Source: Chrysomallon squamiferum (Eukaryota; Animalia; Mollusca). From it: DNA of 64,000 nucleotides. Position 1 is the first letter of the stretch. Each line of letters starts with the position of its first letter. The notes below the pieces were generated by a model that was given only the letters and a program-made list of their open reading frames with translations, did not search any database and was not told the origin of the DNA. Shown here one piece after another: positions 57,001 to 63,000 of this stretch. A program made the translations under genes and the position numbers. The stretch covers positions 310,001 through 374,000 of the forward strand of contig CM022675.1 in NCBI GenBank assembly GCA_012295275.1, given 5' to 3'.

Positions 57001-60000
57001 AGATATCTGTACTTTAGTATTACTGAAATCTGAGATATCTGTACTTTAGTGTTACTGAAGTCTGAGATATCTGTAATTTAGTGTTACTGATGTCTGAGAT
57101 ATCTGTAATTTAGTTTAACTGATGTCTGAGATATCGGCAATTTTGTCTTACTGATGTATGATATATCTGCAGTTTAGTGTTACTGAAGTCTGAGATATCT
57201 GTACTTCAGTAAACTGTGAGATATATATAATTTAGTATTATCGAAGTCTCAGATATCTATACTTTAGTATTACCGAAGTATCAGATATCTGTACTTTTGT
57301 ATTATTGAAGTCTGAGATATAAGTACTTTAGTGAAACTGAAGTCTGAGATATTTGTACTTTAGTATTACTGAAGTCTGAGATATCGGTATTTTAGTGTTT
57401 CTGAAGTCTGAGATGTCTGTACTTTAGTATTACTGTAGTCATGGATATTTGTACTTTAGTATTACTGAAGTCTGAGATATGTGTACTTTAGTGTTCCTGA
57501 AGTCTGAGATATCTATACTTTAGTTTGTTCTTACTGAAGTCTGAAATATCTGTACTTTAGTTTATTCTTACTGAAGTCTGATATATCTTTAGTTTAGTGT
57601 TACTGAAGTCTGACATATCTGTACTTCAGTAAACTGTGAGATATATATAATTTAGTATTACCGAAGTTTCAGATATCTATACTTTAGTATTAGTGAAGTC
57701 TCAGATATTTGTACTTTAGTACTGTTTAAGTCCGAGATATCGTTCTTCATTATTACTGAAATCTGAGATATCGGTACTTTAGTATTACTGAAGTCTGAGA
57801 TATCTATACTTAAGTATTACGTAGATATCTGTACTTTAGTTTGTTCTTTCTGAAGTCTGAAATATCTCTACTATATTACTGAAGTCTCAGATATCTATAC
57901 TTTAGTTTATTCTTACTGAAGTCTGAAATATCTCTACTATATTACTGAAGTCTCAGATATCTATACTTTAGTTTATTCTTACTGAAATCTGAGATATTTG
58001 TACTTTTATAGTACTGAAATCTGAGATAGCTGTACTTCTATTACTGAAGTCAGAGAAATCTGTAATTTTGATAAATGTAAGTATCAAAAAAGAATAAATA
58101 ATCTTATACCGTAATTTTATAATGAGTTTTGGAACCATTTTTCAGTAAATTAAATTTAAATTAAAAACAAAAAGATTCTATAAATAAGAAAATAAGAAAT
58201 AAATATAGATAGGTAATTCGTATGTGTTATCTGCTGTTACAACAAACACTGATAAATCGGTAGATTCATGTTGACAGCTGAAGTATATGTATTATCTGCT
58301 GGGATAACAAATACTCATATAGCAGTAGATTAATGTTGACAGGTGATGTATATGTATTATCAGCTGTTATAACGAACACTCATAAATCAGTAAATTCATG
58401 TTGGCAGGTGATGTATATGTATTATTTGCTAGTATAACAAACACTGATAAATCAGTATTTATGTTGACAGGTGATGTATATGTATTATCTGCTGGGATAA
58501 CAAATACTCATAAAGCAGTAGATTAATGTTGACAGGTGACGTATATGTATTATCTGCTGGGATAACAAATACTCATAAAGCAGTAGATTAATGTTGACAG
58601 GTGACGTATATGTATTATCTGCTGGGATAACAAATACTCATATAGCAGTAGATTAATGTTGACAGGTGACGTATATGTATTATCTGCTGTTATAACGAAC
58701 ACTCATAAATCAGTAAATTCATGTTGGCAGGTGATGTATATGTATTATCTACTGTTATAGCGAACACTGATAAATCAGTATTTATGTTGACAGGTGATGT
58801 ATATGTATTATCTACTGTTATAGCGAACACTGATAAATCAGTATTTATGTTGACAGGTGATGTATATGTATTATCTACTGTTATAGCGAACACTGATAAA
58901 TCAGTATTCATGTTGACAGGTGATGTATATGTATTATCTGCTGTTATAACAAACACTGATAAAGCAGTAAATTCATGTTGACAGGTGATATATATGTATT
59001 ATTTGCTATTATAACAAACACTGATAAATCAGTAAATTAATGTTGACAGGTGATGTATATGTATTATCTGCTGTTATAACAAACACTGATAAATCAGTAA
59101 ATTAATGTTGACAGGTGATGTATATGTATTATTTGCTAGTAAAACAAACACTGTTAAATCAGTAAATTAATGTTGACAGGTGATGTATATGTATTATTTG
59201 CTAGTATAACAAACACTGACAAATCAGTATTTATGTTGACAGGTGATGTATATGTATTATCTACTGTTATAGCGAACACTGATAAATCAGTATTTATGTT
59301 GACAGGTGATGTATATGTATTATCTACTGTTATAGCGAACACTGATAAATCAGTATTCATGTTGACAGGTGATGTATATGTATTATCTGCTGTTATAACA
59401 AACACTGATAAAGCAGTAAATTCATGTTGACAGGTGATATATATGTATTATTTGCTATTATAACAAACACTGATAAATCAGTAAATTAATGTTGACAGGT
59501 GATGTATATGTATTATCTGCTGTTATAACAAACACTGATAAATCAGTAAATTAATGTTGACAGGTGATGTATATGTATTATTTGCTAGTAAAACAAACAC
59601 TGTTAAATCAGTAAATTAATGTTGACAGGTGATGTATATGTATTATTTGCTAGTATAACAAACACTCATGAATCAGTATATTCATGTTGACAGGTGATGT
59701 ATATGTATTATTTGCTAGTATAACAAACACTCATGAATCAGTATATTCATGTTGACAGGTGATGTATATGTATTATTTGCTAGTATAACAAACACTCATG
59801 AATCAGTATATTCATGTTGACAGGTGATGTATATGTATTATTTGCTAGTATAACAAACACTCATGAATCAGTATATTCATGTTGGCAGGTGATGTATATG
59901 TATTATTTGCTAGTATAACAAACACTCATAAATCAGTAAATTCATGTTGACAGGTGATGTATATGTATTATCTGCTGGGATACAAACTGACAAAGGAATC

Positions 60001-63000
60001 TGAAGACGAGCTGATTGAAGCCATTGAACAAGATTTACTCAACACTAAAAACAGATTGGCTATATTTGAACACTTGAACGACGACGTCGTTAGAAAAGTG
60101 AGTCAGAGCTCATAATACAGTGTCACCCTTGTTTCAGAATGTATTCTCAAATACAGAAACTAACGCAGAATATAAAGATTTCAAATGGTTTTGGTTCCTA
60201 TCCATTTTTCACACACTGACTTTGCCTATCGTGAAATCTCACGACAGTAGTTCAACACTATTTCTTATGATCGTGTGTCAGATCAGTAACTTGATATTTT
60301 ATTAACAAACAATTGTTATAATGAAAATAAGTAACAAAACGTCAAATACAGTATTACACTTCAGATGTCTAAGTACTAGATAATAGTTACTTTCGTTTAT
60401 TTGTTACTCACGTCTTATTTATCGAAATGTGTTTCATACCGTTCACAGCTACTCTAATAAATGATGTGTTTGTTTTTTCAGTCTGAAAATACTTTCGTTC
60501 TGGCTCTTGATGGGGACACTGACTTCATGCCCGGGGCGGTACGTCTTCTGGTTGATCGGATGCGGAAAGGTATCAAAGTAGGAGCCGCATGTGGAAGAAT
60601 ACACCCCATTGGAGCAGGTATGTTAGTCATTTCACCTGTACACCTGTAGTTACCCGTTTAACTTACCTGTCATTTAACTGTTATTTCACATGAATTATAC
60701 AAAATTAACCAGCTGATTTATCCAATTATTCTAGTTAATTTCCATTCCTTACTTCTGACACTTTCTTCTAAACTTTCGTGATCTAGGACCACTAGTTTGG
60801 TATCAGAAGTTCGAGTATGCTATTGGACATTGGTTGCAAAAGGCGACAGAACACGTTCTTGGATGCGTACTTTGCAGTCCGGGATGTTTTTCATTGTTCC
60901 GTGGCTCTGCTCTCATGGACGACAACATCATGAGGAAGTACGCTATTCTGCCCACTGAACCGGGACATTACCTGCAGTATGAACAAGGTATGTAATTAAG
61001 AAATTATAATAGCATTCATTTAGACATGGTTTCACTGTTTGATAATGTCTTTAGTGGTATACTAAATTTGGCGCAATAATCAGAAATATATTCAAAACTT
61101 TAAAGTGGATGATATTGCAGTATCTGATTATACTGTAATGTTTAATTCTTTCTTTCATAATCCCATATTTATAATTCATCTATCACCTGTTTGATGTTAT
61201 TGTCAAAAGTGTTTGTTTTGCTACCTACAATTCAGTTAGTGCGTTCGGTAATTATAATATATTATAATGATAATAATGACGATGATGATGATGATGATAT
61301 TAGTATTATTACTATTTTACAATAATAATTATAACAATGATATAACGATATTGATTACAATAGAAATAACAAATGGCATATTACATGTGTAAGTAACTAA
61401 AATAAATCTTTATGCAATAGGCGAGGATCGTTGGCTGTGCACGTTGCTTCTACAACAAGGATACCGGGTTGATTACGTCGCTGCCGCAGACGCATTTACC
61501 TATGCTCCAGAAGGCTTTAACGAATTCTTCAACCAGCGACGTCGATGGATGCCCTCAACATTAGCAAACATCATGGACCTATTGGGGAGTGCTAAGCTGA
61601 CCATAGCTACAAATCCTAACATCAGTTGGCTGTATATATGGTATCAAATGGCTATCATGTTTGGCACTGTTATTGGACCAGGAACGGTCATGTTGCAGAT
61701 TGCTGGTTCTATCCAGTCAGTGTTTGGTCTTGATCGCGCAGTGTGTTATGTGATTTCAATAATACCGCCAGCAGTTTTTATTGTCACATGCTACCATCTC
61801 AAACCCAAATACCAACTTATGTTCGCTGCTATTCTCAGCATGGCTTACGCATTTCTTATGCTTGTCGTCTTGGTTGGAACATTTACAACAGCTGTTCAGA
61901 AATCCCCTTTTGACCCTAGTGTAATTTTCTTCTTCGGTTTAATTGTATTCTTCATTTTCGCCGGGTTGTTACACATTAAAGAAATATCATGTTTAATCCA
62001 CGGTTTGCTGTACTTGCTTAGTCTCCCTTCAGGTTATTTGATCCTGGTGATTTATTCCTTGTGTAATCTGTTCAACGTTTCCTGGGGCACACGCGAAGCA
62101 CCCAAGAGAAAAACTCAAGCAGAGCTGGAACAGGAAAAAAAAAAAGCAAAGGAAGAAAAGAAAAATGGATTTTTTTCTAGGATATTCTTTCAGTCAACCT
62201 ACTTAAAGGAATTCAAAGAGTTGCTCCAAAGTGTTGGAAGTTTAGCTGGGAGAAAAGAGGAAAGCATACAAGAAAAGATTTTAAAAGCTTAAATGACCTC
62301 AACTCAAATTTTGTGAGATATGCCTCTCATGGAAATAAACCTTTGGATGAGACGGTCCATGAACAAGTCACAGTAAAAGTTGAAGAAAGAGATGAATGTG
62401 AAATTACAGAAGAGGAAGAACCCACTGAACCCGAAATCGTGCAGTTACCTACTCAAACAATCGCTACGGATGACTGGTTAGATGATCCTGATCTGGGAAA
62501 TGGTCAAACGTTACATGTAAATGAAGATGAAAATCAGTTTTGGAAACGATTTATCGAAAAATATCTGAAACCTCTTGAAAAAGACGAACAAAAGGAAAAA
62601 CAGATAAAGGCAGGTTTACTGGAGCTGAGAGATAATTATGTATTTTTATTCATAATGTTGAATCTTTTGTGGATCGCACTGAATTATATGTTTCAACGTG
62701 AAAGACCGTTAGTAATAAAAATACCTGGAACCAATTCAGATGTCGAAATTTTAAGCCTGTGCTTTGTGGTCTTTTACTTGCTAATTTTATTGATCCAAAT
62801 TTTTGGTATGATTGTTCATCGATGGGGGACGCTTCAACATATGATATCTGTAACAGAGGTCTCTTTCTTCAAAAAGAAAACCGCAGGTCTCTCAGATTCC
62901 GTTGAATTTGAGGACGCATTGAAATTCTGTCAAGCATTCAACCACGAACCAGTTCCTGACTATCTGGACGAAAACGAAGAAGAAAAGAAACACACTGTAC

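Follow-up and report, generated by a model that had tools for sequence, protein, structure and literature searches.

A tandem array that repeats a gene's own 3' splice site closes a 5,803-nt intron (54151..59953) of a myosin-chitin synthase gene in the mollusc Chrysomallon squamiferum, and the last copy, the one joined to the remainder of the following exon, is the acceptor used in the RNA contigs that we compared. The array lies in a window of 64,000 nucleotides (GenBank assembly GCA_012295275.1, contig CM022675.1, positions 310,001 to 374,000); coordinates below are those of the window, and the exons, introns and arrays of the gene are on its + strand. The intron separates an upstream exon (exon '27', 53997..54150, ending in KRWSQ with a phase-0 donor, CAG|GT at 54151) from the true exon '28' (59954..60097), which is 144 nt long, encodes a stretch that begins with an 11-residue motif and ends in VRK, and is at least the 22nd exon counted from 41801. 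We consider the array to be, with a probability of roughly 0.8, a tolerated minisatellite of the kind known as a 'mirage', without a regulatory role.

Tandem Repeats Finder (TRF) reports a 65-bp period with 27.4 copies and 92% matches at 58221-59987. A scan for the anchor TGTTG(A/G)CAG yields 27 occurrences, the base next to the anchor running from 58278 to 59954, of which the last is the real acceptor; the anchors are spaced by 65 bp (19 times) or 63 bp (7 times). One decayed unit (unit 0, 58213-58277, after TAG|GTAA) lies beyond these anchors and brings the number of units to 28 if the real exon start is included. Together, TRF, the anchor scan and unit typing delimit 25 units of 63/65 bp (58343..59953) and two decayed distal units (58213..58342), the second of which (unit 1, 58278) reads CAG|CTGA and is the only one of the 26 upstream anchors not to keep CAG|GTGA intact. 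A first-pass annotation of the window had described about 27 copies of a 63/65-bp acceptor unit, with 25 intact and two decayed copies upstream and with an origin from the gene's own intron/exon boundary, and all of this stands; the motif that it quoted for each unit is not exact in every one, the 26 upstream units falling into 17 distinct types. Each of the 25 units extends from GT to AG, with about 29 nt taken from the exon start and about 36 nt ending in the acceptor, and a branch-like motif (yTnAy) is found at -24 to -26 in the units. The variation is ordered along the array, with runs of identical units and an exact duplication of a higher-order block of 449 bp, a pattern that is ordinary minisatellite turnover. 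With the decayed units at its 5' edge, the array thus displays concerted turnover from which the boundary units are excluded.

The origin of the unit tail, beyond the bases copied from the exon, was approached by comparison with shuffled sequence. The score of the tail against bases 30-60 of exon 28 was reached by 72, 154, 43 and 9 of 1,000 shuffles for the consensus and three units, and the score against the end of exon 27 by 33, 3, 445 and 140 of 1,000 shuffles for four units; in the latter comparison none of 24 native acceptors reached a score of 12, and the figures are uncorrected for several tries. The values for exon 27, uneven across units, are suggestive of a tail that may be derived from the end of exon 27, an origin that is not needed because, as discussed below, the intron is old.

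The use of the last acceptor could be followed in public sequencing data. Eleven runs (X1-X11) are listed, of which nine have part of the gene, and four were compared over 59850-63600, viz., two DNA runs from two studies (X1 and X3) and two RNA runs from one study (X8 and X9), each in the form of assembled 31-mer contigs and not of raw reads. In both RNA runs the end of exon 27 directly precedes 59951 (acceptor 59954). A single unbranched contig of 1,146 nt spans this junction in X8, and in both runs the contigs run on through exon 28 to the joint 60097>60482. The depth in the bin 59850-59975 is 1.64 and 4.43, where 1.64 and 4.42 are expected from a single spliced contig, and by this comparison neither X8 nor X9 has an RNA contig on the nearest decoy; 17 of the 26 upstream units are within 90% of the nearest decoy, so that their contigs could have matched there as well. 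A decoy isoform is thus unseen in the RNA contigs, at depths of 8 and 22 at which a minor or degraded form would be missed. The choice of 59954 agrees with what the first-pass annotation had expected from exon definition.

The local sequence does not appear to make this choice. By a matrix derived from the 24 remaining acceptors of the gene, the real one scores 2.7 bits, the native median being 5.8. Scores equal to or above that of the real site are reached by 22 of the 26 decoys, as well as by 105 of the 289 AGs in a second, 32-bp minisatellite that occupies an upstream part of the intron (54381..58068, about 114 copies by TRF); so the site is not picked by its immediate surroundings. The 32-bp units mostly end in a pyrimidine-rich TAG, and many of them outscore the real acceptor. 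The earlier view that decoys and real acceptor share essentially the same context holds for most of their scores and not for their letters, as no decoy among the 26 has exactly the sequence of the real site over -20..+23 or over -33..-1. Unique to the last copy are the remainder of the exon and its donor 144 nt further on (60098). Six of the seven GAA triplets of the exon, to which we presumptively assign an enhancer role, lie after base 45. Exon definition is likely the mechanism by which the last acceptor is chosen. Local folding is a weak guide: the real acceptor ranks with the most open sites, 2 of the 26 decoys being more open, but the values are close (0.23-0.51) and its downstream sequence differs from that of the decoys. 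Inside the array, no donor-like GT other than that at the unit junction scored well in a rough matrix built from only 4 donors.

Although the first-pass annotation knew of no described case, the structure has a match in the lancelet and a mirror image in human genes. In the lancelet gene BflGb6, tandem duplications comprising an intron's 3' end together with the exon's 5' part were named 'mirages' after the Adh3 case, vary in unit number and evolve in concert, and leave regular splicing unaffected as judged by reverse transcription PCR (PMC3087553). Further lancelet mirages are reported in troponin C and PGBD5 (PMC3902484). The present array resembles the mirages of BflGb6 (on the acceptor side), BflGb9 and Adh3 in repeating the 3' end of an intron with the 5' part of the next exon, in having AG/GT in most but not all units, in edge units that escape homogenisation and in normal splicing. 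It differs from them in the number of units (27-28 as opposed to 3-6 in BflGb6), in unit length (63/65 bp as opposed to 150-160 bp in BflGb6 and 10-72 bp in Adh3), in its host, a molluscan chitin synthase, and in a length polymorphism that is only hinted at here. Variable number tandem repeats at human donor sites are known in F7 (intervening sequence (IVS) 7, 37 bp), IFI6/6-16 (25 pseudo-sites), CBS (IVS13), LMNB2 and PDGF (PMC1557585). They are likewise repeats of a splice site within an intron in which the exon-adjacent copy is dominant, but the repeated site is the donor, whereas the array described here repeats the acceptor. Only the authentic donor is used in F7, LMNB2 and PDGF, and F7 minigenes with a changed number of units chose the same site (PMC1557585). 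Scanning from 5' to 3', as proposed for F7, would take the first decoy of the present array, and since the RNA uses the last copy, exon definition is favoured.

Exon 27 aligned with eight homologous stretches was used as the query, and of 196 confirmed metagenome loci the 80 best were taken. A break after RWSQ occurs in 63 of these 80 loci, and 17 continue, some of them perhaps transcripts; because 63 loci share the break, the intron is an old one that the array did not create, and the idea of an intron born from the array was rejected on the same grounds. None of the 37 related loci with complete introns (23 groups) has an array. One of the 37 (L005) carries, in another animal, a single, exact 72-bp extra copy of the same boundary, the two copies together lying at 1247-1392; the extra copy reads VMYM into a stop, is independent of the present array and, being exact, could be an assembly artefact. 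AG|GT at the exon 27/28 junction is common to 17 of the 23 groups. Two other features of these loci may be recorded, viz., a stretch of about 90 bp with the RWSQ exon end and its donor, of which a copy lies 693 bp upstream of the genuine one (L011:793-883, also in L012, L013 and L015), and, for this intron position, the use of a GC donor by one locus (L045:8120).

The stops that follow the decoys were the starting point of a regulatory reading. In the coding frame, codon 10 is a stop in 24 of the 26 upstream units (TAA in 19, TAG in 5), the units at 59115 and 59564 have their stop at codon 17, and among the 27 anchors only 59954 is continued by GYK, as had been reported; all 26 decoys thus carry a premature stop in silico. 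From this the first-pass annotation had proposed that copy number tunes productive against nonsense-mediated decay (NMD)-targeted mRNA. Splicing to the nearest decoys would yield stop-containing exons of 209, 274 and 339 nt, sizes that are correct, as are the donors at 54151 and 60098, and the resulting NMD would let the unit number set the dose of chitin synthase. The proposal can draw on the stops in all 26 decoys, on the 22 decoys that match or exceed a rather weak real acceptor, on internal exons of 240-932 nt elsewhere in the gene, which mean that size alone is no bar, on a block of little-varying columns at the unit junction (described below) and on the pseudo-sites used in IFI6 and CBS (PMC1557585). 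Yet stops are expected by chance, since among 10,000 shuffles of the unit tail an in-frame stop occurred within one unit in 64% and by the next exon in 100%, and they count as one event and not as 26 because all units descend from one. Moreover, a decoy contig is found in neither of the two RNA runs, which are too shallow to register a small leak, the array is absent from all 37 complete related introns, unit number is without effect in F7 (PMC1557585), the lancelet mirages leave splicing undisturbed (PMC3087553), and probably only the nearest few units would compete, so that distal additions would change little. Copy-number tuning is therefore unsupported by these data, and we consider it unlikely.

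Several observations nevertheless weigh against a merely tolerated mirage. Two pseudo-donors are used in IFI6 and CBS, so leakage from such arrays is known, and early experiments with tandemly duplicated sites were in conflict as to which copy is used (PMC1557585). Within the array, 3 of the 28 columns around the junction are variable as compared with 22 among all 65 (p=0.013-0.022 once any window is allowed for), which could mean that the decoy sites are maintained; quiet columns of this kind are also expected from homogenisation with a constrained last copy, and no significant synonymous excess was found among decoy variants (3 of 6, p=0.09; p=0.21 with transitions only). The RNA comes from one study, contigs lose rare variants, and NMD would deplete the products of decoy splicing. 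With 52-73% protein identity, the related loci are too distant to be informative on close relatives. Finally, a contig in both DNA runs, X1 and X3, places letters of the 32-bp family directly before the last 7 bases of the intron (loose ends at 59947), and this second context leaves it unproven that the RNA originates from the array-bearing chromosome.

The junction between 32-bp letters and acceptor is absent from the window, and 31-mer contigs cannot phase it; the second context has a branch-point-like CTGAC. It may represent an array-less copy or an alternative 5' end for the array, and it may also indicate that the 32-bp array grew from the ancestral end of the intron. Because X1 and X3 both carry it, the array may vary between haplotypes or paralogues. 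In the corresponding explanation, the array is confined to some haplotypes or to one paralogue, where it may lower output, and the RNA comes mainly from a copy with the acceptor next to the 32-bp repeat. The unfamiliar junction speaks for this, as do diverged versions of the last exon and the next intron in both DNA and RNA. Against it, both RNA runs contain a version of the last exon that agrees with the window (0-2 differences in 253-339 nt), the unit variants occur in animals of two studies, and the second junction could just as well mark another 5' end of the array; we regard this explanation as quite improbable.

The AG|GT at each unit junction raises the further idea of a recursive ladder, in which splicing of exon 27 to a decoy regenerates a donor, CAG|GTGATG, that is spliced again to the next or the last acceptor, restoring the normal mRNA. 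Such a rescue would undo the 'poison' reading of the decoys. The geometry is suitable in 25 of the 26 units, which run from GT to AG over 63/65 nt with yTnAy at -24 to -26, and it recalls ratchet points and intron gain by AGGT duplication (PMC8605326, PMC3443670), which likewise have AG|GT at unit junctions and GT...AG units. In contrast to these systems, the regenerated donor here is weak, conservation is lacking and the intron is older than the array. The donor scores 3.9 bits in a small in-gene matrix, below 21 of 22 native donors, and the same CAG|GTGATG arises from the normal splice, after which the RNA retains the exon. The exon junction complex suppresses such re-splicing in flies (PMC8184009), AG|GT is a consequence of the Q-V codons and occurs in most of the related groups, and the shortest intron of the gene measures 110 nt, against units of 63/65 nt. 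A recursive ladder is thus highly improbable. A composite in which a length-variable ladder of 26 acceptors sets the dose, so that array alleles lead to NMD (or to AG|GT rescue) and alleles with the 32-bp-adjacent acceptor do not, appears distinctly unlikely; the 32-bp array would then perhaps represent an earlier expansion of that intron end, one acceptor having seeded two satellites.

It is very unlikely that the array is an artefact of assembly, and we leave this explanation next to no probability. The assembly contains at least one homopolymer error (62282), the exact block duplication means that the unit count is possibly off by about seven, and no single read spanning the array was seen in the runs compared, one DNA run of which could be the source of the assembly. 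On the other side stand the 17 unit types with their ordered variation and the fact that these variants recur between the DNA runs of two studies: X1 and X3 both contain the unit type that is 2 bp shorter (63 bp), the GGATAAC type and unit tails following exon bases 23-29, with a depth over the unit that is several-fold raised. The exact number of units rests on the assembly.

The host is an intact, spliced myosin-chitin synthase gene. A myosin head (PF00063, E=1.7e-20) is encoded upstream of a chitin synthase domain (PF03142, Pfam Chitin_synth_2, E=1.4e-16), and the two are predicted to be fused in one mRNA. Among named proteins, those of molluscs are the most similar by identity, with values of 60-61% for Haliotis and 62% for Mytilus (over 81% of the query), and PF00063 is present in four molluscan homologues as well. 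A motif of 13 residues is exact in 83 of 120 homologues, which confirms the conserved chitin synthase motif noted earlier. Exon 28 is followed by exons at 60482..60617 (LALDGDTDF; joint 60097>60482 in X8 and X9) and 60787..60987 (with a 10-residue motif) and by the last exon at 61421..63530 (GEDRW, QRRRW; Chitin_synth_2). The DGD, GEDR and QRRRW motifs, which we take to be catalytic, all lie in exons after 59954..60097, so that the term 'catalytic exon' used for exon 28 is apt as to the domain in which it lies and not as to these motifs. A frameshift near 62282 reflects one A missing from the assembly, as the extra A is present in all four runs compared; a pseudogene was rejected, the extra A mending the frame and the gene being spliced.

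Other features of the locus were noted alongside. A diverged second version of the gene is seen in DNA and RNA (X1, X3, X8, X9) at 60103, 62570-62822 and 63342-63600, about 92-94% identical in the last exon and much less so in the next intron, and is either a recent paralogue or a deep allele. Further upstream, the block of myosin-head exons is duplicated (22473-28528 and 42328-48333, 95.6% identity; also 20842-20961 and 41801-41917), and small frameshifts interrupt the upstream copy near 26550 and 27500, which point to a broken partial copy or to assembly errors.

The region of the window is repeat-prone. Apart from the two arrays of the intron, TRF finds minisatellites at 1-9519 (28 bp, 337 copies), 12441-13602 (27 bp, 43 copies) and 52987-53146 (43 bp, 3.7 copies). 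The other introns of the gene measure 110-2,470 nt, compared with 5,803 nt for the array-bearing one, within which an A/T-rich unique spacer (58069..58212) separates the 32-bp array from the 65-bp array. Homology between the 32-bp and 65-bp units was considered and rejected, the score being reached in 479 of 2,000 shuffles.

For the tolerated mirage that we favour, we hypothesize that a single duplication of 63-65 bp across the intron/exon boundary took place in this intron, already rich in minisatellites, and that slippage or unequal crossover then multiplied it, to which the 449-bp block, the identical runs and the decayed distal edge would be the witnesses. The array was plausibly tolerated since the last acceptor alone is followed by the remaining exon and by a donor at a distance of 144 nt and would be favoured by exon definition, and since the product of a rare splice to a decoy would run into a premature stop, so that NMD would probably clear it at little cost. 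The stops themselves would be a by-product of the addition of A/T-rich, mostly frame-shifting sequence.

In practical terms, the array is a pitfall both for the mapping of reads and for gene annotation. Were it true that the number of units tunes an enzyme for shell or radula chitin, its importance would be much greater, a prospect for which these data give no support. As it stands, the array is a clean and large example of a known curiosity, which extends mirages to a mollusc, and with 27 near-identical 3' splice sites in one intron it provides a natural test of how such a site is chosen, by exon definition or by scanning from 5' to 3'.

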